Assembly: GCA_965222615.1 (NCBI GenBank)
Contig: CBDCUI010000007.1
Coordinates: 23,479-87,478 of the forward strand
Direction: 5' to 3'
DNA: 64,000 nucleotides
DNA from: Gammaproteobacteria bacterium
GTDB lineage: Bacteria > Pseudomonadota > Gammaproteobacteria > UBA4575
In this document: positions 2,725-64,000 of the stretch, in pieces
Numbering within the stretch: the stretch's first letter is position 1
Layout: every line of letters starts with the position of its first letter
The notes under the pieces: generated by a model
What the model was told of the DNA's origin: nothing
Database searches by the model: none
The model's input: the letters and a program-made list of their open reading frames with translations, nothing else
Position numbers and translations under genes: made by a program

Positions 2725-2763
2725 TGATTTTGCTGTCTATCAATTAAAAGTAATTTATTCAAC

Positions 2764-41875: not shown

Positions 41876-41920
41876 CGCATTATATTTTTTTTAATAGTTA
41901 TTATATGCCCTCTAAATAAT

Positions 41921-42646: not shown

Positions 42647-42681
42647 ATTTTTACACATAAGCAGATATACAGCTCATTAAT

Positions 42682-43011: not shown

Positions 43012-43049
43012 ATAATAGTGATGGCAGTTAACAGCCATATTTAACCAAT

Positions 43050-49424: not shown

Positions 49425-50339
49425 CTATTCAATCACTACACGATGTTCCTTCATGCCCATATCGCTGAGTCTGGCTACTGTGTCATCAGCTAACTGAACA
49501 GTAGACAATGGCCCAATGCGTACCCGGTGCAATTCCTTCGCGTCTTTTACAATAGAAGATATGGAAACTATTCCTATATTTAAAGGTTTTAACTGATTGA
49601 GTAATTGATCTGCATTGGCACGATCTCCAAATGCCCCGACCTGTACAAAAACTTGTGGACTCGCCTCAGTAGAAACAATTGTTGACTCTAGTGAATCATC
49701 AGTTTGAGAATTGATCTCTTCAGTAACAGGAATCTTTTCTTTGGCTGTAGAAACTTGCGAATCCTGTTTAGAGTTTTTAGTGACTTGGTAGCTGACTGGA
49801 TCAATGGCTTGAATCTCAACCAAACCTGTGCCTTCGCTTATTATGCCAAGTTTTCTTGCCGCTGAGTAAGATAGATCGATAACACGATTTTGATGAAATG
49901 GCCCGCGATCATTGACGCGCACGACAATTTGTCTGCCATTTTTCAAATTGGTAACTTGAACATAGGTTGGTAACGGTAATCGCGTGTGGGCTGCCGTCAT
50001 CGCATACATATCATAAGTCTCCCCACTAGAAGTTCGACGTCCATGAAACTTTTTACCATACCAAGAAGCAATGCCTCTTTCAGAAAACCCATCGCTACTC
50101 GCCAGAGTGTAATAACGTTTCCCAAACACAACATAAGAACTAGGATTACCATAGCGACTACGTGGCTCAACACGTGGGGTAGCATCAGGAGGTAACTCGC
50201 GAGGAATATGTTTTGTTTCTGGCGGAGCATCCTCTACGGTTGGCTTGAACAAGGAACAAGCACCTTGCCCAATTAATAAAATGGCAAATACCCAAACACT
50301 AAATCTACGGGTAGTTTTGGTTAGATTAATTTTGCGCAA
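49425..50339 (-). CDS. rlpA: Septal ring lytic transglycosylase RlpA (DPBB domain + C-terminal SPOR domain)
   Basis: GIASWYGKKFHGRRTSSGETYDMYAMTAAHTRLPLPTYVQVTNL..GRQIVVRVNDRGPF is the RlpA DPBB core. The C-terminal FVQVGAFGDRANADQL is SPOR-like. Confidence 0.9.
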   Translation of the reverse strand: MRKINLTKTTRRFSVWVFAILLIGQGACSLFKPTVEDAPPETKHIPRELPPDATPRVEPRSRYGNPSSYVVFGKRYYTLASSDGFSERGIASWYGKKFHGRRTSSGETYDMYAMTAAHTRLPLPTYVQVTNLKNGRQIVVRVNDRGPFHQNRVIDLSYSAARKLGIISEGTGLVEIQAIDPVSYQVTKNSKQDSQVSTAKEKIPVTEEINSQTDDSLESTIVSTEASPQVFVQVGAFGDRANADQLLNQLKPLNIGIVSISSIVKDAKELHRVRIGPLSTVQLADDTVARLSDMGMKEHRVVIE

Positions 50340-51327
50340 CGTAGTCTTTGATATCTTGTTTAATCTTTTGACTTAATTGATGAACGGCCATCGCATACAT
50401 ATGACTATGGTTATAACGCGTAATGACATAAAAATTATTAAATCCAGCCCAATATTCGTTTGAATTGTCATTATTTAGTTCAAGTAATGCAACTTTTTCT
50501 TGCGAAAAAGAATCCGCTTCAACATCTATATCATATTTTGCTAAATCTGAAACAACTATTGATGGCTTTATGCCTTTATCTAGTAATTTCATATAAGCTG
50601 AGCCATTAATATTAACAGGCAAAGTAACAGGTTTATTTTCACGCCATCCGTGCCGTTTAAAATAATTTGCCACACTACCTATAACATCCTCATTACTACC
50701 CCATAAATCACGCTTGCCATTATCATCAAAATCCACGGCATATCGTCGATAGCTACTTGAAATAAACTGACTTTTCCCCATCGCTCCAGCATATGAACCT
50801 TTAAGTTCTACCGGATCCAAATTTTCCTCATTTGCCAATAATAAAAATTGTTCAAGCTCACTACGGAAAAACTTTTGTCGTGGCGGATAATCAAAACCCA
50901 AAGTCACTAAAGAATCCAGTACTGGATATTTGCCCTCATATCTTCCATAAAAAGTTTCTACACCAAGAATCGCGACAATAATTTCCGGCGGCACACCAAA
51001 TTCACGCTCTGCCGCAGCCAACGTCTGAGCATTCTCTGACCAAAACTGCAATCCTTCTTTAATACGTTTGGGCGTAATAAAAATTTTTCGATATTCTTGC
51101 CAATTCTTCTTTTTTTCTGCTGGTCGCTGAATAGCCTCTAAAACTTCAGTTTGAGTTTTAACCTTATCAAATAACTTTGTTAATGTTTCTTTAGGATATT
51201 GATGTTGCTCAGAAAACTCATCAATAAAACTCTTCACATCTTTTCGATTGAGATAATTTTCGCTTGCATAAGTATTGCTAACAAACACAAATACTAAAAC
51301 AAGTTTTATTAACCAAACTTTTAACAT
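50326..51327 (-). CDS. mltB: Lytic murein transglycosylase B
   Basis: 333 aa with a signal peptide. GVPPEIIVAILGVETFYG, GSYAGAMGKSQFISSSY and the EF-hand-like DFDDNGKRDLW are MltB/Slt35 signatures. Confidence 0.88.
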   Translation of the reverse strand: MLKVWLIKLVLVFVFVSNTYASENYLNRKDVKSFIDEFSEQHQYPKETLTKLFDKVKTQTEVLEAIQRPAEKKKNWQEYRKIFITPKRIKEGLQFWSENAQTLAAAEREFGVPPEIIVAILGVETFYGRYEGKYPVLDSLVTLGFDYPPRQKFFRSELEQFLLLANEENLDPVELKGSYAGAMGKSQFISSSYRRYAVDFDDNGKRDLWGSNEDVIGSVANYFKRHGWRENKPVTLPVNINGSAYMKLLDKGIKPSIVVSDLAKYDIDVEADSFSQEKVALLELNNDNSNEYWAGFNNFYVITRYNHSHMYAMAVHQLSQKIKQDIKDYVAQN

Positions 51328-51331
51328 AGCT

Positions 51332-52462
51332 CTATGGTGATAATAACGACCGATGCGAATTGATAGACATTAATATTCCAAATGCCGCCATGATGGTTAC
51401 AGCCGAGGTCCCACCATAACTAATCAAAGGCAGTGGTACACCAACAACAGGAAGCAAACCACTAACCATACCGATGTTAACCAAAAAATAAGCAAAAAAA
51501 GATAAACTTAAACTACCTGCCAACAACCTAGAGTAAGTATCTTTTGCACTGACAGCAATACTCAACCCTCGCATTACAACAAAACTATACAAAAATAATA
51601 AAAATACCACCCCTAAAAATCCAAATTCCTCGCTGAATACTGCAAAAATAAAGTCAGTTGTACGTTCTGGAATGAAATCAAGTTGAGATTGTGTGCCATT
51701 TAACCAACCTTTCCCGTAAACACCGCCTGAACCTATAGCAATTTTCGACTGGATTATATGATATCCCGTGCCTAAAGGATCACTTTCTGGATTTAACAAA
51801 GTGAGTATCCGTTGCCGTTGATAATCATGCAGATAGAACCAAAATAATGGCATACACGCCAATGCCAACCCACCAAAAACAGCCAATAAGCGCCAAGTAA
51901 TCCCAGCTAAAAAAATAACAAAAACACCAGATAGAATAATTAAAATTGCTGTGCCCAAATCTGGCTGTAAAACGACGAGCCCAGCGGGTATCGCAATAAT
52001 AAGTATCGCCACGATGATCTGAGTTAACGAGGGTGGCATATGTTTATCACGAAAATACCAAGCAATCATCATTGGCAGAAATATTTTCATTACTTCTGAC
52101 GGTTGAAATCGAAAAATACCAAGATCCAACCAGCGCTGCGCACCTTTACCACTATACCCTATCGCCATCACTACAAATAACAATACCAAACCTAGCAGAA
52201 ATAACCATGGTGACCAATTCGATAATTGCTTACTTGGAATTTGCGCTAAAAAAACTAACGCAACAAATCCCAACGCGAAACGAATAGACTGGCGAGTTAC
52301 AGCCGCCATTTCACCGCTAGTAGCGCTATACAATACAGTTAGTCCAATACCACAAAGCAAAATTAACGCACCCATTAATGCTGGATCAATATTTAATAAA
52401 TGCCTTTCATTTTTAATAGGCGAAGACATTATTATGCCTTTGGAAGAAAATACGGTGCTCAT
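51332..52462 (-). CDS. mrdB: Peptidoglycan glycosyltransferase RodA (SEDS family)
   Basis: About 10 TM. QPSEVMKI, PDLGTA and the C-terminal PLPLISYGGTS are SEDS motifs. It overlaps mrdA by 4 nt; the alternative start is 52429. Confidence 0.92.
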   Translation of the reverse strand: MSTVFSSKGIIMSSPIKNERHLLNIDPALMGALILLCGIGLTVLYSATSGEMAAVTRQSIRFALGFVALVFLAQIPSKQLSNWSPWLFLLGLVLLFVVMAIGYSGKGAQRWLDLGIFRFQPSEVMKIFLPMMIAWYFRDKHMPPSLTQIIVAILIIAIPAGLVVLQPDLGTAILIILSGVFVIFLAGITWRLLAVFGGLALACMPLFWFYLHDYQRQRILTLLNPESDPLGTGYHIIQSKIAIGSGGVYGKGWLNGTQSQLDFIPERTTDFIFAVFSEEFGFLGVVFLLFLYSFVVMRGLSIAVSAKDTYSRLLAGSLSLSFFAYFLVNIGMVSGLLPVVGVPLPLISYGGTSAVTIMAAFGILMSINSHRSLLSP

Positions 52463-54327
52463 GGTTTATTTGCAGCCAATAGTTCTTCTTTACTCAATAA
52501 GTAATTATCCATTACTGCTTTTGCCACAGGTGCAGCAGCACGACTACCACTACCACCATTTTCAACAATTACCGCGATTGCAATTTTGGGATCATTCGCA
52601 GGTGCAAAGGCAATAAATAAACCGTGGTCACGCAATTTTTCTTCAATATTTTCCTCTTCATATTCTTCGTCTTCTGCCAATCCAAATACCTGCGCGGTAC
52701 CAGTTTTACCAGCAATTTTATATTTAGCGTCCTTACCTATTCTAAATGCCGTTCCATTAGGCTTATGCACAGCATCTATCATCGCAGAAATAATCTGGTC
52801 CCAATAATATTCATTGGTTACTTCAATATAGGGCATTGCGGTTGCATGCGCCATTTCTTCTACGTTACCTTGTGTGCGTATAGCGCGTAAAAATCTTGGC
52901 TGCACGCCCTGACCTCGCATCGCTAATGCACTCGCTGCTGTTGCCAGTTGCAAGGGTGTGGTTAACATATATCCTTGACCAATTCCGGTAATAATCGTTT
53001 CACCTGGATACCAGGGCTGTCCATACATACCCTTTTTCCACTCCTGTGACGGCATAATCCCTTTGGCTTCTCCCCATGTATCTAAAGCAGTTTTTTGACC
53101 CAGATTAAATTTAGAAAGAAACTCCGACATTCGATCAATACCGAGATCATTTGCTAGAGTGTAAAAATAAACATCGCATGACTGAGTGATTGCTTTAAAC
53201 ATATCAACTCGGCCATGTCCGCCTTTTTTCCAATCTCGGTATTTACGCTTATGTCCTGGCAATTGATAGTATGGCCCTGCATACATGGTTTTTTCTGCCC
53301 AAGTCACACCATAGTGCAAACCCGCTAGTGCCAACATTGGCTTTATAGTTGAACCTGGTGGATATTGACCAGTCAATGCTCGATTAAATAATGGTCGCTT
53401 TGGATTGTTGCGTAATAAAGAATACTGTTTGCGACTGATGCCATTTACAAAAAGGTTCGGATCAAAAGTTGGAGTACTAACGAAAACTAAAACTTCACCT
53501 GTAACAGGATCCATTGCAACCACAGAGCCATTGCGTTCCCCTAGACTATCTTGAGCAATTTTTTGTAAGCGTGCATCTAAAGTTAATACCAAGTCCGAAC
53601 CTGGCGTAGGAGGTACAGTCTCTAATACACGTAATTTACGACCCTGGGCATTAATTTCAATGTGCTGATATCCTACTTCACCATGCAAAACATCTTCATA
53701 GTGCTTTTCAACTCCTAGTTTACCGATATGCGAAGTTCCACTGTAATTTTGTTTATCTAACTTTTTTACTTCTTGAGCATTGATACGGCCAACATAGCCC
53801 AAAGCATGCGAACTAACACCAGATAAAGGATAGTATCGATTTGCACGTGCGGTAACTTCTACACCAGGATAACGGTGACGATTTACAGAAAAACGTGCTA
53901 CTTCATCTTCAGTTAAGTTTATTTTTAAAGGAATCGATTCAAAAGCTTGTTTACGTTTAATATCGTCATAAAATTTTTTGAGATGATGTTCTTCCAGCTC
54001 CACATACTGACTGATTTCAGAAATAGTCTGTTCAATATCATCAACTTGTACTGGAGTAATTTCGATTTGATAGCTAGGTTTATTATCAGCAAGTAATTTC
54101 AAATTTCGGTCATAAATTAAACCCCGTATAGGTGGTGTTGGGACAACCCTAACTCTATTCTCTTGAGATAAGGTTGTGTAATGCTCATTACTAGTAATCT
54201 GCAAATAAAATAAACGTAGACCAAGCATCACTACGCATAACATCACAAACAGCGCCGCAAAATATACGCGCACTTTAAAATAACGTATTTCTACTTTTGG
54301 ATTTTTTAAAAAGTCGCGCGCTGCCAC
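52459..54327 (-). CDS. mrdA: Penicillin-binding protein 2 (elongasome transpeptidase)
   Basis: GTG start, 622 aa, N-terminal TM. Motifs: SxxK (PPGSTIKP), SxD/SxN region (ITQSCDVYFY), KTG (AGKTGTAQ). Confidence 0.92.
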   Translation of the reverse strand: MAARDFLKNPKVEIRYFKVRVYFAALFVMLCVVMLGLRLFYLQITSNEHYTTLSQENRVRVVPTPPIRGLIYDRNLKLLADNKPSYQIEITPVQVDDIEQTISEISQYVELEEHHLKKFYDDIKRKQAFESIPLKINLTEDEVARFSVNRHRYPGVEVTARANRYYPLSGVSSHALGYVGRINAQEVKKLDKQNYSGTSHIGKLGVEKHYEDVLHGEVGYQHIEINAQGRKLRVLETVPPTPGSDLVLTLDARLQKIAQDSLGERNGSVVAMDPVTGEVLVFVSTPTFDPNLFVNGISRKQYSLLRNNPKRPLFNRALTGQYPPGSTIKPMLALAGLHYGVTWAEKTMYAGPYYQLPGHKRKYRDWKKGGHGRVDMFKAITQSCDVYFYTLANDLGIDRMSEFLSKFNLGQKTALDTWGEAKGIMPSQEWKKGMYGQPWYPGETIITGIGQGYMLTTPLQLATAASALAMRGQGVQPRFLRAIRTQGNVEEMAHATAMPYIEVTNEYYWDQIISAMIDAVHKPNGTAFRIGKDAKYKIAGKTGTAQVFGLAEDEEYEEENIEEKLRDHGLFIAFAPANDPKIAIAVIVENGGSGSRAAAPVAKAVMDNYLLSKEELLAANKP

Positions 54328-54589
54328 AATGAATCGTATTGCTAATCTGATGAATTATTATACAAAATAACCATTTGAAAATTCCTGTTATAGTGTATAT
54401 TACCTGATTGCTATTGCTACTAACATTGAGATTGTTCACTACGAAATAGGCAGAAAGCCTATATAATTGCCGCCGGTGCTGTCTGGGCTAAATATATATT
54501 TGGGTGAAGCATCAGTAACAGTCGATCAACATACAAGCTACATAAAAGCATAAAAACAACCACATTTGTGATCTTTTAGGAGAAGATTC

Positions 54590-56593
54590 ATGACAATTCA
54601 TCACTTACCCATCGCTCTTGGTGTGCTGGGTCTTATTGCTGCATTCGTTATTTATCAATTTGTACTACGCTATTCGCAAGGTACTGGTAAAGTTGTCGAA
54701 ATATCTGATGCGATACACACCGGCGCAATGACTTTTATGCGCCGTGAATACACTATTTTATTTATATTTGCAGCTTTCGTTGTCATTGCAATCTGGTTCT
54801 CAGATCTGGGTCAAAATACCGCGATCGCATTTATCGTTGGGGCACTATGTTCATCGGCTGCCGGTTATATCGGTATGTATACCGCTACACGTGCCAATGT
54901 CCGCACCACGGTTGCAGCGCATGAAAAAGGTGCCGATGCAGCACTTGGTGTTGCATTTTTTGGCGGCTCGATTATGGGTCTTACCGTTGCTGCAATGGGC
55001 CTACTCGGCCTTGGCAGCTTGTATCTATTTTTTGGCCGTGATCCAGCTACTGCAAATGTCATTCATGGATTTGGCATGGGGGCTTCCACCGTTGCGCTAT
55101 TCTCACGTGTCGGAGGTGGTATCTATACAAAGAGCGCAGATGTGGGCGCCGATTTGGTGGGTAAAGTCGAAGCCGGTATTCCAGAAGACGATCCTCGTAA
55201 TCCCGGAGTGATTGCAGATAATGTAGGTGACAATGTAGGGGATGTGGCTGGTATGGGCTCAGACATCTTTGAATCATATTGTGGTTCCATCATCGCTACG
55301 ATCGCAATTGCTGCAACCCTTGCCCCGGCTATTGTAGAAAAACTCGGTGAAAAACAAACACTGATGTTTTTACCATTGGGATTAGCATCAGTCGGAATCG
55401 TATGTTCATTACTCGGCATTCTTTTAGTAAAACTTACATCTGGAAAATCTCCAGCAACGGCATTACGCATAGGTACATTTTCTGCAGCAGTATTATTTAT
55501 AATTGCTGCATACTTTGTAATTAAATCACTTGGCTTAAGCACTGGTATATGGGTGTCCGTACTTGCTGGAGCCGTGGGCGGAATCATAATAGGTTTAGTT
55601 ACGGAGTATTACACCGGTGGCAGTCCGGTAAGAAAGATTGCCAAAGGTGGTGAAACCGGTCCCGCTACGGTAATGATCTCCGGCTTGGCCATTGGTATGC
55701 AATCAGTAGTAGTGCCGGTATTAAGTCTTGCTGCGATTATTTTCTTTGCGAATTATTTTGCCAGTTTATATGGCGTTGGTATTGCTGCAGTTGGCATGTT
55801 AGCCACGGTTGGTATCACTATGGCAATCGATGCCTATGGTCCGGTTGCGGATAACGCCGGCGGGATTGCGGAAATGGCTGAACTCGGTGAAGATGTGCGT
55901 AAAATTACTGATGAATTAGATGAAGTCGGTAACACTACAGCCGCAATTGGTAAAGGCTTTGCAATTGGTGCCGCGGCATTGGCTGCATTAGCGATCATCA
56001 CAGCCTTTCTTGCCGAAGTAAGCCATGGCAAAGAATCTATTGTTTTAGACTTAAGTGATCCTAAGGTGTTAATTGGATTATTTATTGGAGGCGTGTTTCC
56101 TTTCATTGTGGCCTCCTTGACCATGACGGCTGTAGGAGATGCCGCATTCGATATGATTAAAGAGATTCGTAGGCAGTTCAAAGAAATACCTGGGCTTTTA
56201 GAAGGCAAGGCCAAGCCGGATACGGTTCGCTGTGTCGATATCGCAACTACTGCAGCTTTAAAGCGTATGGTACCTCCAGGTTTATTGGCCGTGATTGCAC
56301 CAGTAGTAGTCGGCTTTGGATTCGGGGCCGAAACCTTAGGTGGAATGCTAGGTGGCGCACTATTAGGCTGTGTGTTGCTAGCCTTGATGATGGCAAATGC
56401 CGGTGGTGCATGGGATAACGCAAAAAAGTATGTTGAAAAAGGCAATTTAGGTGGCAAAGGCTCCGATGTTCACAAAGCCGCGGTTGTAGGTGACACCGTG
56501 GGAGACCCATTTAAAGACACGTCAGGCCCTTCGATGAACATACTTATCAATGTAATGGCAATCGTGAGTTTGGTAATAGCGCCACTTTTATAA
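54590..56593 (+). CDS. hppA: Membrane-integral pyrophosphate-energised cation pump (M-PPase), K+-dependent-type motif
   Basis: 667 aa, about 16 [90 protein letters not shown] and [16 protein letters not shown] are family signatures. Confidence 0.95.
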
Positions 56594-56701
56594 ATATACC
56601 TAAGTATTAAAAAATTTCTTCATTCTACTAATGCTTAACTCTCTAGGTTTAGCCCAGAACGAATTGTTATTTATTTAATTCTAATCTATTTCGTCTAAAA
56701 T

Positions 56702-58450
56702 TTAATTTGGTATTACTGGAACCTGTATGTGAGTAGGGGTATCTACTCCAAAACAAATTTTCTGCATTGCACTAATTGGTCTAGTTTCGTAAGGAATGGG
56801 ATTGCCAGTATTTGGATTTCGATCAAATCTCGGAAAGCTGCTGCTTGTGATATGAACCCTTATCTGATGCCCTTTCTTGAAAACATAGCTTGTAGGCCAT
56901 AGTTTTATTTCAATCTTATTCGCTCCTGTACAACTTTGATTTCCTAACTTATACCCTGCTCTTTTAGTACCATCAGTAACATTGTAGGAATCACCATTTT
57001 CAAAAACATCTGTAATTCTCACAACAAAGTCTGTGTTAGTTACATTTGTTTGAACAAAAAGAATTGCTGTTATTGGGCCCGTAAGCTCTATATCTGAATC
57101 AAGAAATTCGCTTGTATAAACTAAAACATCATCTCTTATCTCAATTTCATTTTGTAGAGCGATACCAGCACGCGGACCCAGAACTACTCCACCCTTTGAT
57201 GGTACTGGATCATTCGGATCATACAAATATTGATCAAAACCAATAATTTCAGGCTTATTCCAATTTAGTTTGCCTGAAGAGATTGATGAGTTTGCCGTTC
57301 CATTGCTAGAAATATATAAATTCCTAAATTTAGTCCTTGCTAATGGCCATTCATTTTCGTATCTCCATTTATTAATACCTAAAACAAATAATTTAATTTT
57401 TCCTGCATTACTATTTTGATTGTTTTTAGGCTTTAAAAGTTGTTTATCAAACCAATTTAGTCCTTCCTTAATACTTGTTTTTCTATATGTTGGTACTTTA
57501 CTTGTACCTGGTATTTTTACTTCTCTTGCATGTGACCAAGGACCAATAATTATTTCTGATTGAGTAGAAACAGTTTTAGATTCTGATTGTTTTAATTGCA
57601 TAAAATCATCAAGTTGAGAGGGTAAAAAAGGGTCAAACCAACCAGCAAGCATTTGTACAGGTGCATTAATGGATTTGGCCCTGTCTATACCATCAATATT
57701 TATCCAGTACTTATTGTTAGTATTGTTCAGCACCCAATCGTTAAAAAACTGAATATCTTTACCAGCACGTTCATCTGCGCTTATTAAAGGGAATCCCCAA
57801 AATCCTTTTTCCATATCCTTTATTTTAGGTTCGAAGTCTTCCTTGCCACTGCTTTGCAGTGACCATCTAAGTGCACTTTCAAGGGAAAAAGCCCCGCCAG
57901 GGTAAAACATGTCATAGAAGCTAGTACTAACGATATGTAGATGGTAAGCGCTGATATTCGGATTAGTTTGATCAGAGATTGCTAGTTGTGTGTATCCAAA
58001 GGCAGACCCTCCCCACATGCCAAGTTGTCCACTGAACCATGGTTGTTTGTTCAGCCATTGTAATGTTTCGATTCCATCTCCTCTTTCATTTATTAAAGGA
58101 TAGTATTCACCCTGAGATTTATAGCGTCCACGTGTTCCTTGGATAACAACATTGTACCCACGAGATGCCCAATATCTTGCAACTGCATCTGATTTCAAAC
58201 GATTTGGAAATGTATTTGTAAACGGAATTCTTATTAGAATTGTAGGTACCGGTTTATTGGCGACAGGTCTGTAAACATCGGAGACAAGAGTAATATTATC
58301 TGAAGTAATTAAACTATAATCTTCATGTTTAACTACTTTATATTCTCTGGATCGGACACCCTCATTCGGGAGAAAGAACTCCTGTGTAATAGTTTGACAA
58401 CCACATAAGAGAAGAATTAACAAAAACGAAAGATTTTTGATAAGTTTCAT
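56702..58450 (-). CDS. CocE/NonD family alpha/beta hydrolase (peptidase S15-like), predicted lipoprotein
   Basis: 582 aa. Lipoprotein-type N-terminus MKLIKNLSFLLILLLCGC, RGYNVVIQGTRGRYKSQGEY, the nucleophile elbow MWGGSAFGY, and a C-terminal beta-jelly-roll (PepX_C-like) region with IRVHITSSSFPRFDRNPN. Confidence 0.8.
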   Translation of the reverse strand: MKLIKNLSFLLILLLCGCQTITQEFFLPNEGVRSREYKVVKHEDYSLITSDNITLVSDVYRPVANKPVPTILIRIPFTNTFPNRLKSDAVARYWASRGYNVVIQGTRGRYKSQGEYYPLINERGDGIETLQWLNKQPWFSGQLGMWGGSAFGYTQLAISDQTNPNISAYHLHIVSTSFYDMFYPGGAFSLESALRWSLQSSGKEDFEPKIKDMEKGFWGFPLISADERAGKDIQFFNDWVLNNTNNKYWINIDGIDRAKSINAPVQMLAGWFDPFLPSQLDDFMQLKQSESKTVSTQSEIIIGPWSHAREVKIPGTSKVPTYRKTSIKEGLNWFDKQLLKPKNNQNSNAGKIKLFVLGINKWRYENEWPLARTKFRNLYISSNGTANSSISSGKLNWNKPEIIGFDQYLYDPNDPVPSKGGVVLGPRAGIALQNEIEIRDDVLVYTSEFLDSDIELTGPITAILFVQTNVTNTDFVVRITDVFENGDSYNVTDGTKRAGYKLGNQSCTGANKIEIKLWPTSYVFKKGHQIRVHITSSSFPRFDRNPNTGNPIPYETRPISAMQKICFGVDTPTHIQVPVIPN

Positions 58451-59187
58451 CTTGGTTTTTTTCTCTTAACACCTAGCAATCTTGCAAACCCCCATTTCCT
58501 AAAACCCAACATCATTGCAACCCCATTACGCTTGTTTGCAGGAATTTTTAAGTCATCGCTAATTAATTGGTCAAAATATCTTGCAACTTCGTCTAATTTC
58601 TCATGCATTTTATGAATCGCTCCATCAGTAAGCATTCCACCAACAAAGTGAAGTTTCTCGTCAGGATCAGAAAATTTTGTTTCTAAAAATTCAGTTAAAA
58701 TTTCTTGATTGAAAAACTTTTGTACCGGACCATCATCGGACCATTTAAAGTTTCGAGCTGTTAATAAACGAATACGATTAAATGGTAATAATTCAATTAG
58801 ACCAATTTTTTCAAGCTTTATAAAATGCTTGTTGAGTTCGGCTTCTGAGAAATCAAACGTATCCTTAATTTCATGCTCCTTCCAATGATTAAGAATAAGG
58901 TAGGTAACTAATAACAACCTATGATCATTCACAAATTCTTTTTCTTGTTGCAATGTAAGTTGTGTAACTAAAGGTTGCTGTTGTTCTGATTCCAATACAA
59001 CTTCTTTGATGTCTATCCCAAGCCAATTGCACAAAGTCTCTAGTCGCTTTAATGATAAGTCAGCCTTTGAGAATAAGCGCTTTACACTTGCTTCACTCAA
59101 ATCAAGAATTTCGGCAGCTTCAGCATAGGACTTTCCCTTCTTACGCATGATTTTCTTCAGTGCTATATGTATTGATTTACTCTGCAT
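58447..59187 (-). CDS. XRE-family HTH transcriptional regulator with uncharacterised C-terminal domain
   Basis: N-terminal HTH: LKKIMRKKGKSYAEAAEILDLSEASVKRLFS. Its stop overlaps the hydrolase start by 4 nt (ATGA). It is divergent from the GH3 operon. Confidence 0.75.
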   Translation of the reverse strand: MQSKSIHIALKKIMRKKGKSYAEAAEILDLSEASVKRLFSKADLSLKRLETLCNWLGIDIKEVVLESEQQQPLVTQLTLQQEKEFVNDHRLLLVTYLILNHWKEHEIKDTFDFSEAELNKHFIKLEKIGLIELLPFNRIRLLTARNFKWSDDGPVQKFFNQEILTEFLETKFSDPDEKLHFVGGMLTDGAIHKMHEKLDEVARYFDQLISDDLKIPANKRNGVAMMLGFRKWGFARLLGVKRKKPR

Positions 59188-59209
59188 AAACTTGAAGGTA
59201 TCAATTTAT

Positions 59210-59223
59210 AATACTTAAGTATT
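59210..59223. promoter_or_regulatory. Perfect 14-bp palindrome in divergent promoter region (candidate operator)
   Basis: AATACTTAAGTATT is self-complementary. A second palindrome AATATTA-C-TAATATT lies at 59225-59239, and a further AATACTT half-site at 59261-59267. The surrounding DNA is very AT-rich, so chance occurrence is not negligible. Confidence 0.35.
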
Positions 59224-59423
59224 AAATATTACTAATATTTTTATATTTATTGCATTATATAATACTTTTAGAGATTCTTACACTAATTCGTAGCAATTAT
59301 TGGCTATCAATCAATATCAAGGGGAGGATTATTTTGAGCCAAACACAGCTGTTCATAACTTTATTTTTGATCATTTGTCTTTCTCTACTTTGATTGAAAT
59401 TTCTGAAGAGGAGTATTGGATTT

Positions 59424-59891
59424 ATGAACTCAGTGAAAGAAATAAATACTTACCAGGGAACTTACGGAGCAATTCTTTGGAGCCTACTGGGTCTATTTTG
59501 CTTCCGAGTTGTAGCGCAATTAATTCAATCTAATTTCTCAATAGATTTCTTACCTGCATTTGAAGCTTGGCATAGTGGAGCGCTGCCATATCACTACTTA
59601 GTCATCACTCAGATTTTCATTATCTTTTTATATAGCTACATATGCATTCGTTTTACAAGTAGGAAAGTAGTTCCCAATAGAAAACTGGGAAATATATTTT
59701 TATATTCAGGGTTAATTTATGCAGTAGCTATGTTAGCGCGATTATTAATTGGAGTATTTGGAATTTCTTCAGCATGGTTCCATGCATATTTGCCAATATT
59801 TTTTCATTTCGTACTTGCTGCTTTTTTAATTGTAGTTGGTCTGTTTCATCTGAAATTTTATAAACACTATGAAAAATTACTTCACTCATAG
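59424..59891 (+). CDS. Hypothetical small integral membrane protein (about 4 TM), first gene of the GH3 operon
   Basis: The ATG at 59424 is preceded by GAGGAG (59408-59413, 10-nt spacer); the ORF track starts at TTG 59394. Hydrophobic helices throughout. It overlaps the next gene by 23 nt. Confidence 0.6.
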   Translation: MNSVKEINTYQGTYGAILWSLLGLFCFRVVAQLIQSNFSIDFLPAFEAWHSGALPYHYLVITQIFIIFLYSYICIRFTSRKVVPNRKLGNIFLYSGLIYAVAMLARLLIGVFGISSAWFHAYLPIFFHFVLAAFLIVVGLFHLKFYKHYEKLLHS

Positions 59892-62457
59892 TTTATTACC
59901 ATGGGTTGCATACCCGATTGGTATTGGGATAGGAATCTACTTGCATATAGTAATGCTTTCATGGGGCATTGATCTTCAAATTAGCACATACGTTCCTATA
60001 TTTTTTGCAGCCGGGATGATCACGTTGTTTGAGCTTTATTTTCCACATTTACATCAATGGAAACCCAATATTAAAGATGTAAAAAATGATGCAATGTACA
60101 TGCTTATTGTACAAACGATTTTGCCAAAAGTATTGGCATTTTTTACTGCATTAGTACTGTTACGCTATTCAAACGAAAGTAGTTTATTTAATTTAAACCT
60201 TTGGCCACATTACTTACCTGTATGGATTCAGGCAATGATAATGATTTTAGTGGCTGATTTTTTTCGTTATTGGCTTCATGTTGCTTCTCATAAAAATAGT
60301 TTCTTATGGAGATTTCATGCAGTTCACCATTCCCCTAAAAAATTGTATTGGATAAATACAGGAAGATTTCATCCTATTGAAGAAGTCGCTCAGTTTTTAT
60401 TCGATGCATTACCTTTCATTCTACTAGGTGTCAGTGAATATGTTCTGGCATTTTATTTTGTTTTCTACGCCATAAATGGTTTTTTTCAGCATTCCAATAT
60501 AAAACTGAAGTTTGGTGTATTGAATTATTTAATTAGTACTGCAGAACTACATCGTTGGCATCATTCACGTATTGAGAATGAATCAAATTCAAATTATGGA
60601 AATAATACAATTATTTGGGATCTAATCTTTGGTACTAGATACTTACCAAATAATAGAAGCATCGAAAATATAGGGCTTATCAATTCCAAATATCCGACTA
60701 CATTTATCGATCAACTTAAAACTCCATTTGTTGGAGGATTAGATAAAAAGAATTTGCCTTTACCTAGCATTAAACAGCTAATTGTGAATGGCCTAATCAA
60801 ACTTCAAATGAAAATTACCAAATATACTATTTGGAAACCCATGATGAAGGCTGCTAAAGACCCTATGCATGCGCAATTTAGTTTCCTCAAACAACTCATG
60901 GAAGAAAATGCAAAGACAAAATTTGGAAAAGAACATCAATTTAATAACATAAATTCTTATGAAGATTATTGTAGGCTTGTGCCTATTCAAACATATGAGA
61001 CGTTAAGCCCATATTTTACAAAACAAGATAAATCAAAAGAATCTTTGATAAACAATGAGCAACCGTTTATGTATGCAGTTACAAGCGGGACTACAGGAGC
61101 ATCAAAATTTATACCGATTTTAGATAAGACAATAAAACAAAATAAAAAGCACCAGAAGCTTTTTACCTATATTCAATATAGAGATAATCCTGGAACATTT
61201 AGCGGCAAAATGCTAGGAATAGTTAGCCCAGCAATTGAAGGATATACAGAGCCGGGCACTCCATTCGGCTCTGTATCTGGTGTTCTATATAAAAATATGC
61301 CTTCGATTATGAGATCGAAATATGTACTTCCATTTGAAATATTTTCAATTGAAAACTATGAGCTTAAATATCAACTAATTCTAAGAATCGCCCTTACCTA
61401 TAAAGATATTACCTATTTTGTTACAGCAAATCCGTCAACTTTACTAATGCTTAACAAAATACTAAATGAGGATATTTCTGTATTAGCAAATGAAATTGAG
61501 CATGGAGGATTTAGAGAATACGAAGTCTTACCAAAGAGTATCCAAACATTTATTACAAAAAATTTGAAGCCAAATCCAAAACGTGCAGATGAACTACGTC
61601 AGCTAATATTTAATAAACAAGAAATTACTTTTGCAGATGTATGGCCACAGTTACAAACCGTTGTTACATGGACTGGCGGTAGTTGTGGAATCGTATTAGA
61701 CACAGTTAAGCAAAAATTACCAGCCACGACAAAAATTATTGAACTAGGGTATATGGCTACTGAAGTGAGAGGAACAATAACAATTGATGCAGAAAATAAT
61801 CTTGGTCTTCCTACTATTGAGGATAATTTTTTTGAATTTGTAGAAAGAGATGATTGGGAAAATGATAAACATAATTTTCTAACAATCGATCAGCTATCTA
61901 AAAACAAAGAGTACTATATATTCATCACAACAAATTCTGGCCTTTATAGATATTTCATTAATGACATAGTTAGAGTAACTGGAAAAGTAGAAAATACTCC
62001 TACTCTTCAATTTATACAAAAGGGAAAAGGTGTTACTAGTATTACAGGTGAAAAATTATATGAATCTCAAGTTATTGAAGCGATGAAATTAACTGAGAAA
62101 GAGTTTAATTTTACAAATATCTTCTTCATTATGCTAGCAAATAAAAAATTCTCAAACTATGAATTATTTATTGAGAATTTCGATAATTTTGAACCCCCAT
62201 TAGAACTAATAAGAGACTATGTTGAGTCTTGTCTTTGTAGATTAAATATTGAATATGAAAACAAACTTGCAAGTGGGAGGATTAAACCACTATCTTTACA
62301 TCTTATTCAAAGTGGAACAAGAGAAATATTTAAAAAGTATTTCATCGAAAAAGGACAAAAAGAAAGTCAATTTAAAATTGTGGCTCTTCAATATAAAGAT
62401 GAATTGGACTTTGATTTTGAAAATCACGTTCTAAGATTTTTTGAAAAAGCGAGTTAA
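59869..62457 (+). CDS. Fusion protein: N-terminal membrane fatty-acid hydroxylase/sterol-desaturase-type di-iron domain + C-terminal GH3 (acyl-acid amido synthetase, ANL superfamily) domain
   Basis: One 862-aa ORF. The N-terminal about 260 aa has TM helices and three His boxes: HVASH (aa 137-141), HAVHH (150-154), HRWHH (228-232). The C-terminal about 540 aa has the GH3 nucleotide motif TSGTTGASKFIP (aa 405-416, nt 61081-61116), GYMATE, and GLYRYFINDIVRVTG...TPTLQFIQKGKG. Confidence 0.8.
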   Translation: MKNYFTHSLLPWVAYPIGIGIGIYLHIVMLSWGIDLQISTYVPIFFAAGMITLFELYFPHLHQWKPNIKDVKNDAMYMLIVQTILPKVLAFFTALVLLRYSNESSLFNLNLWPHYLPVWIQAMIMILVADFFRYWLHVASHKNSFLWRFHAVHHSPKKLYWINTGRFHPIEEVAQFLFDALPFILLGVSEYVLAFYFVFYAINGFFQHSNIKLKFGVLNYLISTAELHRWHHSRIENESNSNYGNNTIIWDLIFGTRYLPNNRSIENIGLINSKYPTTFIDQLKTPFVGGLDKKNLPLPSIKQLIVNGLIKLQMKITKYTIWKPMMKAAKDPMHAQFSFLKQLMEENAKTKFGKEHQFNNINSYEDYCRLVPIQTYETLSPYFTKQDKSKESLINNEQPFMYAVTSGTTGASKFIPILDKTIKQNKKHQKLFTYIQYRDNPGTFSGKMLGIVSPAIEGYTEPGTPFGSVSGVLYKNMPSIMRSKYVLPFEIFSIENYELKYQLILRIALTYKDITYFVTANPSTLLMLNKILNEDISVLANEIEHGGFREYEVLPKSIQTFITKNLKPNPKRADELRQLIFNKQEITFADVWPQLQTVVTWTGGSCGIVLDTVKQKLPATTKIIELGYMATEVRGTITIDAENNLGLPTIEDNFFEFVERDDWENDKHNFLTIDQLSKNKEYYIFITTNSGLYRYFINDIVRVTGKVENTPTLQFIQKGKGVTSITGEKLYESQVIEAMKLTEKEFNFTNIFFIMLANKKFSNYELFIENFDNFEPPLELIRDYVESCLCRLNIEYENKLASGRIKPLSLHLIQSGTREIFKKYFIEKGQKESQFKIVALQYKDELDFDFENHVLRFFEKAS

Positions 62458-62465
62458 CTATAATC

Positions 62466-63590
62466 GTGCGGGTTAAAAATACTATATTAAAAAAAATAGA
62501 TATTCCTTTTACAGTGTCCTTCAAACACTCCTCTGCTAAACGATCACAAACTGAGAGTGTTCTTGTAGAGATGACATCTAATAGAGGAATAACAGGTTAT
62601 GGAGAATCATGTCCAAGAGATTACGTAACTTCCGAAAACATTAATAGTGTAAAAGCATTTTTCAATGAAAATATTTTCTCCTTTAAAAATGAAGTGATCA
62701 ACTTATTTAGTCTAAATAATTGGATGGACAAAAATGCTAAAAAAATTGATGCAAATCCAGCTGCTATGTGTGCAATCGAAATGGCATTTCTAGATTTGCT
62801 TTCAAGAAACAATAGTGTGTCAATAGAAAACCTAATCGGGCTACCTGAATTACACGGTCATTTTAAATATACAGCCGTAATTGGAGATAGTAGTGCAGAA
62901 ATATTTCATAGCATTCTTAAAAAATATTTAGAAATGGGCTTTGATGACTACAAGGTTAAACTCTCTGGCGACATTGAAAAGGATCAAGAAAAATGTCAAA
63001 TAATAAATCGTAACGTCAATTCTCCTATACGATTGCGATTTGACGCTAACAACCTATGGGATAACTATAAAATTGCGATTAACTATTTATCTAAATTAAA
63101 TATAGATTATTTTGCAGTTGAAGAACCGCTTGCCCCAAATGACTTTGTAGATTTATCCAAAATCTCAAATGAGCTAAACAAACAAATCATTTTAGATGAA
63201 AGTTTTTTGAGAGTTAGTCAATTTGAAAATCTCATTGATCATCCTGAAATGTGGATAATAAATCTTCGCATATCAAAGATGGGTGGTTTATTAAGGTCAA
63301 AGAAAATTGTCGATGAAGCAAAAGCCCACGGAGTTAAGATAATCATAGGTGCTCAGGTTGGTGAAACTAGCCTTCTCTCTAGAGCTGCTTTAGTTATCGC
63401 TAATTCTGCAAGAGACATACTTATTGCTCAAGAAGGTGCATATGGAAATTTACTACTAAAAACAGACCTTTGTGAGCCACCAATTATGTTTAGCAAATCA
63501 GGTGTTCTCAATTCTTCCAATCTACCAATATCCTCAAATGGATTTGGATTTGAATTAAAAAATCATGATAATTTCGAGATAATTAACTAG
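62466..63590 (+). CDS. Enolase-superfamily enzyme, muconate-lactonizing-enzyme (MLE) subgroup (racemase/epimerase/OSBS-like)
   Basis: GTG start, 374 aa. KxK motif K163-V-K165; metal ligands D193 (RFDAN), E219 (VEEP), D244 (ILDES); second catalytic Lys K271 (ISKMGG). Confidence 0.75.
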   Translation: MRVKNTILKKIDIPFTVSFKHSSAKRSQTESVLVEMTSNRGITGYGESCPRDYVTSENINSVKAFFNENIFSFKNEVINLFSLNNWMDKNAKKIDANPAAMCAIEMAFLDLLSRNNSVSIENLIGLPELHGHFKYTAVIGDSSAEIFHSILKKYLEMGFDDYKVKLSGDIEKDQEKCQIINRNVNSPIRLRFDANNLWDNYKIAINYLSKLNIDYFAVEEPLAPNDFVDLSKISNELNKQIILDESFLRVSQFENLIDHPEMWIINLRISKMGGLLRSKKIVDEAKAHGVKIIIGAQVGETSLLSRAALVIANSARDILIAQEGAYGNLLLKTDLCEPPIMFSKSGVLNSSNLPISSNGFGFELKNHDNFEIIN

Positions 63591-63637
63591 GAAAATTTAT
63601 TGACCATTATTGAGATTTAACCTGTTTGTTATTTCGT

Positions 63638-63659
63638 TCGGTTGAAATAGCAACCGAAA
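63638..63659. terminator. Hairpin between convergent genes (weak terminator candidate)
   Basis: ttcggttg-aaatag-caaccgaa forms an 8-bp stem. There is no T-run on either strand. Confidence 0.25.
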
Positions 63660-63677
63660 GTGGTTCTCCAGATGTTC

Positions 63678-64000
63678 TTATACAGTACTTGCGCGCATTT
63701 CTCTAAATCTTGAAAAAGTATAATTACGCAAATCATCTGCAATCATGTAAAAACATGGCAATACCACTAAAATAAGCACAGTGGCAAAGATTAAACCGAA
63801 TCCAAGGCTCACTGCCATGGGTGATAAAAATGCAGTTTGGCCACTGGCAAAAAAGATTAATGGCGAAATTCCTAAAAATGTCGTTACCGTAGTAAGTAAA
63901 ATTGGGCGAATACGTACTCTTCCCGCATCCACTAATGCATCAAAACAAGTTGCCCCTTGTGCGCGTCGTTTTTTAGCAAAATCTATAAGAATCAAAGAAT
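63678..64000 (-). CDS. RND efflux transporter permease (AcrB/HAE family), C-terminal end only; gene continues past the window
   Basis: The translated C-terminus RIRPILLTTVTTFLGISPLIF...AVSLGFGLIFATVLILVVLPCFY is the typical last TM bundle of RND pumps. The frame stays open to the window edge. Confidence 0.8.
   Translation of the reverse strand, partial: SLILIDFAKKRRAQGATCFDALVDAGRVRIRPILLTTVTTFLGISPLIFFASGQTAFLSPMAVSLGFGLIFATVLILVVLPCFYMIADDLRNYTFSRFREMRASTV

Follow-up and report, generated by a model that had tools for sequence, protein, structure and literature searches.

A conserved bacterial gene module of a GH3 ligase, a di-iron hydroxylase and an MLE-subgroup enolase-superfamily enzyme that may build a modified N-acyl amino acid

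Dipeptide epimerases and the N-succinyl-Arg/Lys racemase take as substrates N-acylated amino acids whose carboxylate is free and epimerise them at the alpha-carbon, and the GH3 enzymes of plants act on non-lipid acids. A bacterial GH3-like amide ligase, OlsH, was described in 2025; it uses ATP and Mg2+ to join a free fatty acid to ornithine, giving N-acyl-ornithine, and its gene lies in a small operon beside lipid-modifying genes, flanked by those of the methyltransferase OlsG and the alpha/beta-hydrolase OlsI (PMC12493201). The membrane hydroxylase OlsE (Rhizobium tropici, Agrobacterium), with its di-iron FA_hydroxylase fold, targets the ornithine head group at C4 and not the acyl chain (PMC12971839). 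In the window (the whole 64,000-nt stretch of gammaproteobacterial DNA analysed here), relatives of these enzymes are encoded side by side, in an uncharacterised module that is spread over many bacterial phyla and is best read as a system for GH3-dependent aminolipid synthesis. No published description of a module of GH3, hydroxylase, enolase and the four-helix membrane protein TM4 was found in the searchable literature. The first-pass annotation of this DNA knew of no characterised bacterial pathway of this kind; this is now superseded for the GH3 step and still stands for the combination with the enolase and TM4. The amide-forming step is the only one of the module with an experimentally studied bacterial relative, namely OlsH.

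The locus is made of two divergent units, with the following features:

56702-58450, minus strand: CocE/NonD-family hydrolase gene, 582 aa ORF
58447-59187, minus strand: XRE-type regulator gene, 246 aa ORF
59188-59423, no strand: AT-rich control region between the divergent units, with putative operators (25% GC, palindrome, repeats)
59424-59891, plus strand: TM4, four-helix inner-membrane protein, 155 aa gene call (longer ORF 59394-59891)
59869-62457, plus strand: hydroxylase::GH3 fusion gene, 862 aa ORF
59869-60768, plus strand: di-iron hydroxylase domain (OlsE-like), N-terminal in the fusion, PF04116
60844-62457, plus strand: GH3 acyl-acid amido synthetase domain (OlsH-like), C-terminal in the fusion, PF03321, PF23571 and PF23572
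62466-63590, plus strand: MLE-subgroup enolase-superfamily gene, 374 aa, GTG start, MR_MLE_N and MR_MLE_C
63637-63660, no strand: hairpin TTCGGTTG-N8-CAACCGAA in the enolase/RND intergenic region, from direct sequence reading

Direct reading and profile matches confirm the five reading frames, their junctions and their family assignments as earlier described: the XRE and CocE/NonD genes share an ATGA stop/start overlap, TM4 and the fusion gene overlap by 23 nt, and the enolase gene follows the fusion after 8 nt. The locus has hppA upstream, and 3' of it lies the C-terminal end of a convergent RND-type pump gene, whose identity comes from its translation alone. Its GC content is 33.0%, against 39.5% in the remainder of the window, and only 3 of 229 windows of equal size have a GC content as low. 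As had been claimed for the locus, no tRNA gene was found, here within 50000-64000. The hairpin at 63637-63660 could possibly serve as a bidirectional terminator for the enolase and RND genes, which converge on it; the terminator scan made no call there.

To what extent these genes belong together was assessed in the 80 best-matching loci, taken from species-representative genomes of many phyla (some counts are over 82 loci). An MLE-type enolase gene lies directly 3' of the GH3 gene in 79 of the 80, with a median gap of 3 nt and with 54 of 62 gaps overlapping or not exceeding 30 nt, and such an order in independent genomes is beyond chance. In 34 loci hydroxylase and GH3 form one protein, and in 42 the hydroxylase has a separate neighbouring frame, a pattern which indicates that the two activities are linked, and hydroxylase and enolase are kept together in 76/80. 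Starting from the enolase side, all three independently picked homologues were also found in the module, according to database gene calls. TM4 is present in about 77% of loci (63/82), mostly immediately upstream of the hydroxylase, and is missing from about 15 loci with adequate flanks, whereas a CocE/NonD gene adjoins the module in only about 12% (10-11/80) and is lacking in about 88%. The roles proposed below for TM4 and CocE/NonD are thus dispensable or replaceable ones. The plus-strand genes are thus a true, tightly conserved functional unit, and the minus-strand genes are accessory to it. The five genes had been proposed to form one set, which a lack of co-occurrence outside this genome would have refuted: the GH3-enolase core does recur (79/80), but the five do not form a single conserved group, CocE/NonD being found with few modules and the XRE gene in 6 gammaproteobacterial loci only.

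Both domains of the fusion resemble ornithine lipid enzymes, OlsE and OlsH being their only NCBIfam matches, and each of 16 diverse homologues matches both models. The FA_hydroxylase domain (aa 123-256; PF04116, 109 bits) carries complete His boxes H137xxxH141, H150xxHH154 and H228xxHH232, invariant across the 16 homologues, and matches the OlsE model NF052566 over its full length (positions 29-284 of 293), but at 177.6 bits, well below the cut-off of 475, so that it is not an equivalog; a further difference from OlsE is its covalent attachment to the synthetase in many genomes. The GH3 N, M and C domains span aa 326-840, with PF03321, PF23571 and PF23572 all above cut-off; plant GH3.6, JAR1 and GH3.12 match aa 336-838 with E of about 1e-21, while the OlsH model NF052613 is matched at 116 bits against a cut-off of 620. 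The GH3 nucleotide-binding motifs, also kept in OlsH, are invariant among the same homologues (T405-S-G-T408...K413, Y628...E632, Y693-R-Y...N698-D699). Since both OlsE and OlsH scores are far under the equivalog cut-offs, we cannot take either the fatty acid or the amino acid for granted. The genomic setting also differs from that of OlsH: this GH3 adjoins or is fused to a di-iron hydroxylase, has no flanking OlsG and OlsI, and is trailed by an enolase gene and mostly preceded by TM4, neither of which appears in the OlsH papers.

In the enolase-superfamily protein, the full MLE catalytic set (K163-x-K165, D193, E219, D244, K271) is invariant. Profile and fold searches both rank epimerases and racemases first, the closest solved structures being the N-succinyl-Arg/Lys racemase BC0371 (2p88), dipeptide epimerases (YkfB 1jpm, 3jva, 3r0k) and L-Ala-D/L-Glu epimerase, which share the subgroup and the KxK/D/E/D/K set and superpose with TM-scores of 0.83-0.86. 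Like BC0371, which lacks the residues typical of L-Ala-D/L-Glu epimerases, the protein lacks the ammonium-binding DxD motif of YkfB. In contrast to these relatives, to which its identity is just 22-25%, it has invariant motifs of its own (H21, R26, C49-P-R51-x-Y-V-T55, R191, N195-N196, R268, R306, E323-G-A-F-G) and a dedicated genomic partner, the GH3 ligase. A plain o-succinylbenzoate synthase (OSBS) or muconate cycloisomerase, an outcome that the first-pass annotation had named as refuting its proposal, was considered and rejected, because the protein scores under both cut-offs and its nearest structures are epimerases and racemases; its best NCBIfam match is the OSBS model menC_lowGC (120 bits against a cut-off of 200). 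We predict that the enzyme epimerises an N-acyl amino acid, although epimerisation and beta-elimination are indistinguishable by sequence, as dehydratases and OSBS of the MLE subgroup share the same catalytic residues.

TM4 has 59 homologues, every one unnamed. A Pfam search returned nothing even at E <= 10, and a PDB fold search with its AF2 model (pLDDT 94, pTM 0.88) gave no match (best E = 0.25). The longer frame begins with TTG at 59394; in view of the 155 aa database gene call, the likely start is ATG 59424, after a GAGGAG ribosome-binding site. The four hydrophobic helices are predicted by the positive-inside rule to be arranged N-in/C-in, and the conserved residues R38, Q42, Q73, R116 and H138 lie inside or at the ends of predicted helices. 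In L002, L004 and L040, TM4 is fused in frame to CocE/NonD, and in L002 a fifth TM helix separates the two parts.

The hydrolase belongs to the CocE/NonD family (TIGR00976, 333 bits against a cut-off of 66; Peptidase_S15 and PepX_C are also matched). It aligns with Rhodococcus cocaine esterase, a relative of the alpha-amino acid ester hydrolases, over aa 50-580, across the catalytic and jelly-roll domains (E = 4e-82), and keeps the aligned active-site motifs DVYRP, GGSAFG, GWFDPF and GPWSH, which we take to be the sites of Tyr44, Ser117, Asp259 and His287 of that enzyme. Unlike cocaine esterase, it accompanies a lipid-type module as an accessory protein and has either a lipoprotein signal peptide or a TM4 fusion: here the signal peptide is MKLIKNLSFLLILLLCGC, whose Cys lines up with that of the lipobox in homologues, and lipobox-like signal peptides occur in all CocE/NonD homologues except the three fused to TM4. 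The hydrolase is thus probably periplasmic and membrane-anchored. In nine of ten clustered loci, the window included, its gene is on the same strand as the module, the window being the exception.

Taken together, these data are in agreement with a module that builds a modified N-acyl amino acid, of the lipoamino acid or lyso-aminolipid type, by ligation, hydroxylation and epimerisation at the alpha-carbon, a reading to which we give about an even chance of being right. The product would be a fatty-acyl amino acid, most likely hydroxylated and possibly stereo-inverted; an N-acyl amino acid, as first suggested, is still the most economical reading. The cytoplasmic GH3 domain would adenylate a free fatty acid or other lipophilic carboxylic acid and use it to acylate an amino acid at its alpha-amino group, in the way that OlsH acylates ornithine; we infer the substrates of this and all later steps. 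The membrane hydroxylase would then act on the membrane-bound product, before or after epimerisation, and by analogy with OlsE its target would probably be the head group (PMC12971839), contrary to the acyl chain initially envisaged. The soluble MLE-type enzyme would take the alpha-proton from this N-acylated residue, L to D inversion being the most likely outcome. TM4 may bind or translocate the lipid in the inner membrane and, where CocE/NonD is present, may pass it to this serine hydrolase at the periplasmic face, which could process or recycle it by deacylation or transacylation. A complete acyloxyacyl aminolipid is unsupported, since no OlsI-like O-acyltransferase is conserved among the module's neighbour genes.

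Other schemes would use the same genes differently. The hydroxylase might place a beta-hydroxyl on the head group and the enolase act as a dehydratase, in the manner of OSBS and cis-3-hydroxy-L-proline dehydratase, leading to an N-acyl alpha,beta-dehydroamino acid and not to a D-amino acid. Dehydratases of the MLE subgroup use the KxK/D/E/D/K set conserved here, OSBS and cis-3-hydroxy-L-proline dehydratase are among the sub-threshold NCBIfam matches, and hydroxylase and enolase are co-conserved. However, L047 and L065 hold GH3-enolase pairs without any hydroxylase, from which it follows that the enolase step needs the GH3 product and not hydroxylation; moreover, no dehydratase is among the nearest structures by profile and fold, and OlsE works at C4, not C3 (PMC12971839). 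We infer epimerase chemistry and consider dehydration unlikely, if still worth keeping in mind. Somewhat harder to sustain is a stereo-inversion or salvage route, in which GH3 acylates, the enolase racemises and CocE/NonD deacylates, with net L/D interconversion and the acyl amino acid as a transient carrier. This scheme follows the N-succinyl amino acid racemase pathway and is close to the make/epimerise/hydrolyse cycle first imagined for the locus. It agrees with the enolase's nearest relatives, with the BC0371 precedent (PMC2948282) and with the intact-triad hydrolase that neighbours the module here and in about 12% of loci, but it leaves most modules without their hydrolase and gives no role to a membrane hydroxylase so often fused to GH3. 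The predicted export of the hydrolase, either as a lipoprotein or with a fifth TM helix ahead of it, also sets it apart from the GH3 and enolase proteins, which have no signal peptides, so that it cannot simply close a cytoplasmic cycle.

Two further readings appear very improbable, and to a similar degree. The enolase could work ahead of GH3, in the manner of OSBS or a cycloisomerase, and make a signal-type acid other than a fatty acid (aromatic or cyclic, for instance) that GH3 would then conjugate, which recalls plant hormone conjugation. In this scheme an enolase and an adenylating enzyme would be paired as are menC and menE, which are often neighbours; this adjacency offers a parallel, the best NCBIfam match is menC_lowGC, and solved GH3 relatives conjugate IAA, jasmonate and benzoates. 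Yet the OSBS score is under its cut-off, N-acyl amino acid and dipeptide epimerases top both searches, the other two domains match no curated bacterial families but those of ornithine lipid enzymes, and no other men-type gene is conserved near the module. Those same family matches would also suit an ordinary ornithine lipid pathway, with the fusion acting as OlsH plus OlsE to give a hydroxylated (lyso-)ornithine lipid and with enolase, TM4 and CocE/NonD as unrelated neighbours. Against it are the low scores of both domains, the lack of a conserved OlsI-like acyltransferase and the constancy of the enolase, whose overlapping or near-abutting frames exclude coincidence.

Within the aminolipid reading, the divergent XRE regulator would control both units in this gammaproteobacterial clade. 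The protein (HTH_26, 28.9 bits against a cut-off of 22; HTH_3 is also matched) is probably a local regulator of the XRE/Cro-C1 type, translationally coupled to the hydrolase gene through the ATGA overlap. Its gene was seen only in gammaproteobacterial loci, with homologues in L001, L014, L068, L082 and L083 alone, always divergent from the module. The intervening region is AT-rich, as first described, and a scan of it saw no promoter enrichment. It contains GTAT-N9-ATAC (59198-59214), a perfect 14-bp palindrome, AATACTTAAGTATT (59210-59223), and a third half-site (59258-59267); these short AT-rich repeats are putative operators. The exact 14-mer occurs once in the window, all four relatives compared retain GTAT-N9-ATAC, and the whole region is about 85% identical to its counterpart in L082.

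The locus holds five genes on two divergent strands, all of which were found again in the ORF list of the window:

56702-58450, minus strand: CocE/NonD hydrolase gene, 582 aa
58447-59187, minus strand: XRE regulator gene, 246 aa
59424 (probable ATG start) to 59891, plus strand: gene of the small four-helix membrane protein (TM4), 155 aa in the database call
59869-62457, plus strand: hydroxylase::GH3 fusion gene, 862 aa
62466-63590, plus strand: gene of the MLE-type enolase-superfamily enzyme, 374 aa

The five open reading frames proposed in the first-pass annotation are thus real, and direct reading of the sequence confirmed each junction reported there, namely the ATGA stop/start overlap, the 23-nt overlap and the 8-nt gap. 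The families assigned to the hydrolase, the regulator, the fusion and the enolase were also supported by the Pfam and NCBIfam scores. ATG 59424 is the probable start of the TM4 gene, since the database gene call has 155 aa and a GAGGAG ribosome-binding site precedes that codon.

To describe the conservation of these genes, homologues of the fusion were collected, and at least 712 were found at E <= 1e-10; in each of the best 120, which span many phyla at 44-88% identity, the four Pfam domains of the fusion extend over the full length. When one genome per GTDB species was scanned, at least 560 stretches encoding a relative were obtained, of which the best 80 were fetched with 10-kb flanks. These 80 loci belong to Gamma-, Beta- and Alphaproteobacteria, Dehalococcoidia, Acidimicrobiia, Nitrospirota, Nitrospinota, Acidobacteriota, Bdellovibrionota, Bacteroidota, Poribacteria, Binatia and Methylomirabilia, and the partner genes were located in them by tblastn with the proteins of the window. 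The enolase gene lies directly 3' of GH3 in 79 of the 80 loci, the single exception stopping at the locus boundary, and the median distance from the GH3 stop to the enolase start is 3 nt (among 62 gaps, 27 are overlaps and 27 measure 0-30 nt). Hydroxylase and GH3 share one frame in 34/80 loci and occupy neighbouring separate frames in 42/80, GH3 alone being found in 4/80. TM4 is present in 61/80 loci by tblastn and in 63/82 by profile HMM, usually directly upstream, and just downstream of the enolase gene in nine loci. CocE/NonD was found at full length in 10/80 loci and as a contig-edge fragment in an eleventh (about 12%), always adjoining the module, and XRE in 3/80 loci by tblastn and in 6 loci overall.

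About 1170 neighbouring ORFs, predicted with a caller trained on the codon usage of each locus, were subjected to unbiased clustering, which recovered CocE/NonD in 10 loci (on the same strand in 9) and XRE in 4 loci (always divergent). No further conserved partner appeared in this clustering, the other families found being generic (ABC ATPase, SDR, ADH, amidase, Rieske). In the reverse test, which relied on database gene calls, three enolase homologues (about 50% identical) were picked without reference to the GH3 matches, and all three sit in the module, where a small unannotated protein comes first, then FA_hydroxylase (284-294 aa), GH3 (548 aa) and enolase; in one case CocE/NonD follows. 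A chance juxtaposition of the module genes is ruled out by the adjacency in 79/80 loci together with this reverse test. The co-occurrence expected for all five genes therefore stands for the plus-strand core and fails for CocE/NonD and XRE, whose low frequencies rule out a single conserved set of five; these two genes are accessories specific to certain lineages and not core steps. A reduced module is encoded by two MAGs of Bacteriovoracaceae and Bdellovibrionaceae (Bdellovibrionota-type loci L047:10010-12873 and L065:9019-12007), in which a soluble GH3 of 576-616 aa is paired with the enolase and neither hydroxylase nor TM4 was found nearby.

In the fusion, the GH3 N-terminal, middle and C-terminal domains (aa 326-840) scored 198.8, 70.5 and 49.6 bits, respectively, against a Pfam cut-off of 23.6, and the structures of the plant enzymes GH3.6, JAR1 and GH3.12 matched aa 336-838 with E of about 1e-21. 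Nucleotide binding by GH3 enzymes involves a P-loop resembling (S/T)SGTTxGxxK, a YxxxE motif and a motif resembling YRxGD (in part PMC12493201). The fusion has all three, as T405-S-G-T-T-G-x-x-K413, Y628-M-A-T-E632 and G-L-Y693-R-Y-x-x-N-D699, which are invariant across 16 diverse homologues and align with the motifs of GH3.6. The definitions of these motifs are partly general knowledge of the family. Compared with the equivalog model NF052613 of OlsH, the GH3-type N-acyl-ornithine synthetase, the fusion reached 116.1 bits against a curated cut-off of 620, the better of two matched stretches joining aa 327-532 to positions 33-240 of the 524 in the model. OlsH of Singulisphaera acidiphila, a GH3-like enzyme characterised in 2025, converts a free fatty acid and ornithine to N-acyl-ornithine with ATP and Mg2+, and the second acyl chain is added by OlsI, an alpha/beta-hydrolase (PMC12493201). 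OlsH showed no activity in living E. coli. The link of bacterial GH3-like enzymes to lipid synthesis dates only from that report, whose authors state explicitly that a function and a specificity have yet to be assigned to the thousands of bacterial GH3-like homologues outside planctomycetes (PMC12493201). When a partner equivalent to OlsI was sought by clustering of the neighbours, no conserved neighbour was found but CocE/NonD, in the minority of loci already mentioned, and the CocE/NonD protein of the window matches only TIGR00976 in NCBIfam.

The N-terminal part of the fusion contains an FA_hydroxylase domain (PF04116, 109.3 bits against a cut-off of 31, aa 123-256) with the His boxes H137/H141, H150/H153/H154 and H228/H231/H232 (HxxxH, HxxHH and HxxHH), invariant among homologues. 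The equivalog NF052566 of OlsE, the ornithine lipid headgroup hydroxylase, gave 177.6 bits against a curated cut-off of 475, in a match that spans the full model. OlsE and OlsH are the only NCBIfam matches of the fusion, and the same pair was obtained for 16/16 diverse homologues; both scores fall far short of the cut-offs, which places the module outside these two equivalog families. OlsE puts its hydroxyl group on C4 of the ornithine head group (PMC12971839). Neither PMC12493201 nor PMC12971839 refers to a fused hydroxylase, to an enolase as a partner or to a small membrane protein.

The enolase contains MR_MLE_N and MR_MLE_C domains (Pfam). The MLE subgroup is defined by KxK at strand 2, Asp/Glu/Asp metal ligands at strands 3-5 and Lys at strand 6, and the enolase shows this set as K163-x-K165, D193, E219, D244 and K271, residues that align with those of the L-Ala-D/L-Glu epimerase YkfB (1jpm), are invariant in 33 sequences and at least 90% conserved in 56. 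Its scores stay below the cut-offs of the muconate/chloromuconate cycloisomerase TIGR02534 (88.6 bits vs 334.95) and of the dipeptide epimerases NF041118 (65.7 vs 500) and NF011708 (52.7 vs 343), and the same holds for the OSBS equivalogs TIGR01928, TIGR01927 and NF002739 (120, 67.4 and 55.2 bits vs 200.65, 130.55 and 259). No conserved men genes were found near the module by clustering of the neighbouring ORFs, and a position of the enolase upstream in the pathway, with an OSBS-like role, is the less likely reading.

In dipeptide epimerases, a DxD motif binds the ammonium group of the dipeptide. The corresponding FDFDAP of YkfB is aligned to EGAYGN in the enolase of the window, the DxD being replaced, and E323-G-A-F-G327 is conserved across the enolase family, which also has invariant residues of its own in the specificity loops (H21, R26 and C49-P-R51-x-Y-V-T55); R191, R268 and R306 are invariant as well. 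When the family profile was compared with solved structures, 2p88, described in the PDB as the N-succinyl Arg/Lys racemase of Bacillus cereus, came first (E = 5.5e-41), followed by dipeptide epimerases. The AF2 model of the enolase (pLDDT 90) superposed best on L-Ala-D/L-Glu epimerase, dipeptide epimerases and 2p88, with TM-scores of 0.83-0.86 (0.83 for 2p88). All of these nearest structures epimerise the alpha-carbon of an N-acylated amino acid with a free carboxylate. The replaced DxD recalls the 2p88 enzyme, BC0371, which clusters with the epimerases, is likewise missing family-typical residues and acts as an N-succinyl-Arg racemase (PMC2948282). Since the family misses the equivalog cut-offs and is devoid of the DxD of YkfB, the label of L-Ala-D/L-Glu epimerase is probably wrong for thousands of sequences of this subfamily. 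This label is the one given to the subfamily by JGI-named sources among proteins P0217-P0303.

TM4 has four hydrophobic helices and no match in Pfam, and the 59 homologues found are all unnamed. Its four-helix AF2 model (pLDDT 94) gave no match in a PDB fold search, and the positive-inside rule puts both predicted termini in the cytoplasm. Five polar residues (R, Q, Q, R, H) are conserved and are located inside the predicted helices or at helix ends. A function as a cytochrome-b-type electron donor to the hydroxylase was ruled out, TM4 having one fully invariant His and no Pfam or PDB fold match; a second His, near the C-terminus, is about 90% conserved.

The hydrolase consists of Peptidase_S15 and PepX_C domains and scored 333.3 bits with TIGR00976 (CocE_NonD), against a cut-off of 66.3. 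It matches cocaine esterase at 4e-82, with alignment of the active-site motifs DVYRP, GGSAFG, GWFDPF and GPWSH, which contain the Ser-Asp-His triad and the oxyanion Tyr. Lipobox-type signal peptides start six CocE/NonD homologues, including that of the window. In three other loci (L002:790-2898, L004:13699-15960 and L040:13679-15940), TM4 and CocE/NonD are fused in frame in proteins of 702-753 aa, which links the two functionally. In the L002 protein a fifth TM helix separates TM4 from the CocE/NonD part, and therefore the hydrolase domain would face the periplasm; both the fusions and this helix suggest a periplasmic location.

Taken together, we propose that the GH3 domain would synthesise an N-acyl amino acid on the cytoplasmic side of the membrane, that the OlsE-like domain would hydroxylate it, that the enolase would act on its alpha-carbon, that TM4 would handle the lipid within the membrane and that, in some genomes, a periplasmic CocE/NonD would process it. 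This five-part model, for substrates that we infer throughout, is the most economical one for the module. A route by hydroxylation and dehydration to dehydroamino acid lipids would also employ both the hydroxylase and the enolase, but L047 and L065 pair GH3 with the enolase in the absence of any hydroxylase. The enolase step would therefore be tied to the GH3 product and not to hydroxylation, which favours epimerisation over dehydration of a hydroxylated intermediate and makes the dehydration route less likely. Also less likely than the five-part model is a transient cycle in which acylation, racemisation and deacylation would serve a stereo-inversion. The module resembles the OlsH route completed by an OlsE-type modification, whereas its MLE-type epimerase-like enzyme and its TM4 family have no counterpart in any described aminolipid pathway, and a plain ornithine lipid pathway is again the less likely explanation.

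The module is spread over Proteobacteria, Nitrospirota, Acidobacteriota, Chloroflexota, Actinomycetota, Bdellovibrionota, Bacteroidota, Poribacteria and other phyla, and full-text searches of the literature gave no description of a GH3 and enolase (and hydroxylase) module. Cultivable carriers of the module include Bdellovibrio sp. HCB185ZH and HCB337, Gracilimonas and Kaarinaea lacus. The undescribed N-acyl amino acid pathway suggested in the first-pass annotation holds for the plus-strand core, and its support is now much firmer thanks to the conservation across phyla, the fused and split forms of hydroxylase and GH3 and the OlsH precedent of 2025. A more specific reading, which we offer tentatively and with more doubt than confidence, is that (TM4), OlsE-like hydroxylase, GH3 and MLE epimerase constitute an unrecognised broad pathway to a new class of hydroxylated N-acyl-D-amino acids, either lipids or signals, where the enolase epimerase would set the stereochemistry of the head group after ligation and the new four-helix family would make the lipid available on the periplasmic side.

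The locus points to one large coherent subgroup of bacterial GH3 homologues, whose obligatory partners, a head-group-type hydroxylase and an epimerase-like enolase, predict a specific and testable chemistry. If true, this would be a fourth enzymatic logic for the biosynthesis of aminolipids and N-acyl amino acids, would explain the physiological role of a large branch of orphan enolase-superfamily proteins, automatically annotated as L-Ala-D/L-Glu epimerase, and would establish TM4 as a new family of membrane proteins. Among the groups concerned would be Nitrospira, Dehalococcoidia and Acidimicrobiia, which matter in the environment and are for the most part uncultured. N-acyl amino acids also attract interest as biosurfactants and signalling molecules, and the locus offers a concrete starting point, accessible to experiment, for work on the unexplained radiation of bacterial GH3 proteins and on the orphan enolase branch.

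The closest relatives of the locus are found in MAGs of uncultured Gammaproteobacteria. Loci L082 and L083, with fusions about 87% identical, keep the layout of the window, CocE and XRE being divergent from TM4, fusion and enolase, and L001 (89% identical) has no CocE/NonD. An extra block lies between XRE and TM4 in two of these loci (L001:7093-9545 and L083:5161-7572) and comprises a second, stand-alone FA_hydroxylase, 34% identical to the domain of the fusion, one or two proteins without Pfam match and a DCC1-like thiol-disulfide oxidoreductase; the possibility that the small proteins beside the second hydroxylase of L001 are TM4 paralogues was ruled out. Two further loci, L036 and L037, also have a second hydroxylase, located between the enolase and CocE genes.

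The flanks of the module differ among the window, L001, L082 and L083. In the window it is bordered by hppA and an RND-type gene, in L001 by sspB and a macro-domain gene on one side and by FAD-linked oxidase, SIS-domain and LppC-family genes on the other, and in L082 by phosphonate-binding protein, methyltransferase and carbamoyltransferase genes. In L083 a phage-type integrase (Arm-DNA-bind_3 and Phage_integrase, 11939-13234), itself followed by an HTH_17 protein, comes directly after the enolase gene, and seven tRNA genes are clustered on the other side of the module (11-1387); this integrase probably belongs to a neighbouring element. The GC content of the locus is 33.0%, against 39.5% in the remaining window, and just 3 of 229 windows of the same size are as low. 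The low GC and the different flanks mark the locus as an accessory module, probably horizontally mobile, and the flanks in the four loci suggest that the module moves. The ORF list of the window showed no integrase and the scan of 50000-64000 no tRNA, which rules out an integrative mobile element there, and an Rfam search of the window matched no RNA family. Further low-GC stretches of the window are located at about 2001-3000 (31%) and at 41001-44000 (33%).

Other neighbours of the module were observed in single genomes. In L081:2771-7160 (fusion 70% identical), genes for an MMPL/sterol-sensing-domain transporter, a DUF1329/TP_0789-like (LolA-like) protein and a 420-aa protein without assignment come before the module and may encode a lipid export system. 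On a Vicinamibacterales-type contig (L084:6110-7077), a GNAT acetyltransferase and an OsmC protein come after the enolase in overlapping or abutting frames, and in another genome (L086:522-2003) an apolipoprotein N-acyltransferase (Lnt) gene immediately precedes TM4; both cases may reflect coincidence or additions specific to a lineage. In the window, a hairpin with an 8-bp stem, TTCGGTTG...CAACCGAA, lies at 63637-63660 between the convergent enolase and RND-type genes, where the terminator scan made no call.

The XRE regulator has an N-terminal HTH of the Cro/C1 type, which scored 28.9 bits with HTH_26 (cut-off 22) and 22.1 bits with HTH_3, slightly below 23; its C-terminal 180 aa have no family assignment. 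The region between the XRE and TM4 genes is about 85% identical in the window and L082. It contains in the window a perfect 14-bp palindrome, AATACTTAAGTATT, at 59210-59223, unique within the window and included in overlapping inverted repeats built from GTAT/ATAC half-sites (59198-59267). The palindrome is not kept in L001 or L083, which rules it out as a shared operator, and a GTAT-N9-ATAC repeat beside the start codon of the regulator is kept in the window, L082, L083 and L001. Judged from these sequences, the palindrome and the GTAT-N9-ATAC repeats are candidate operators.
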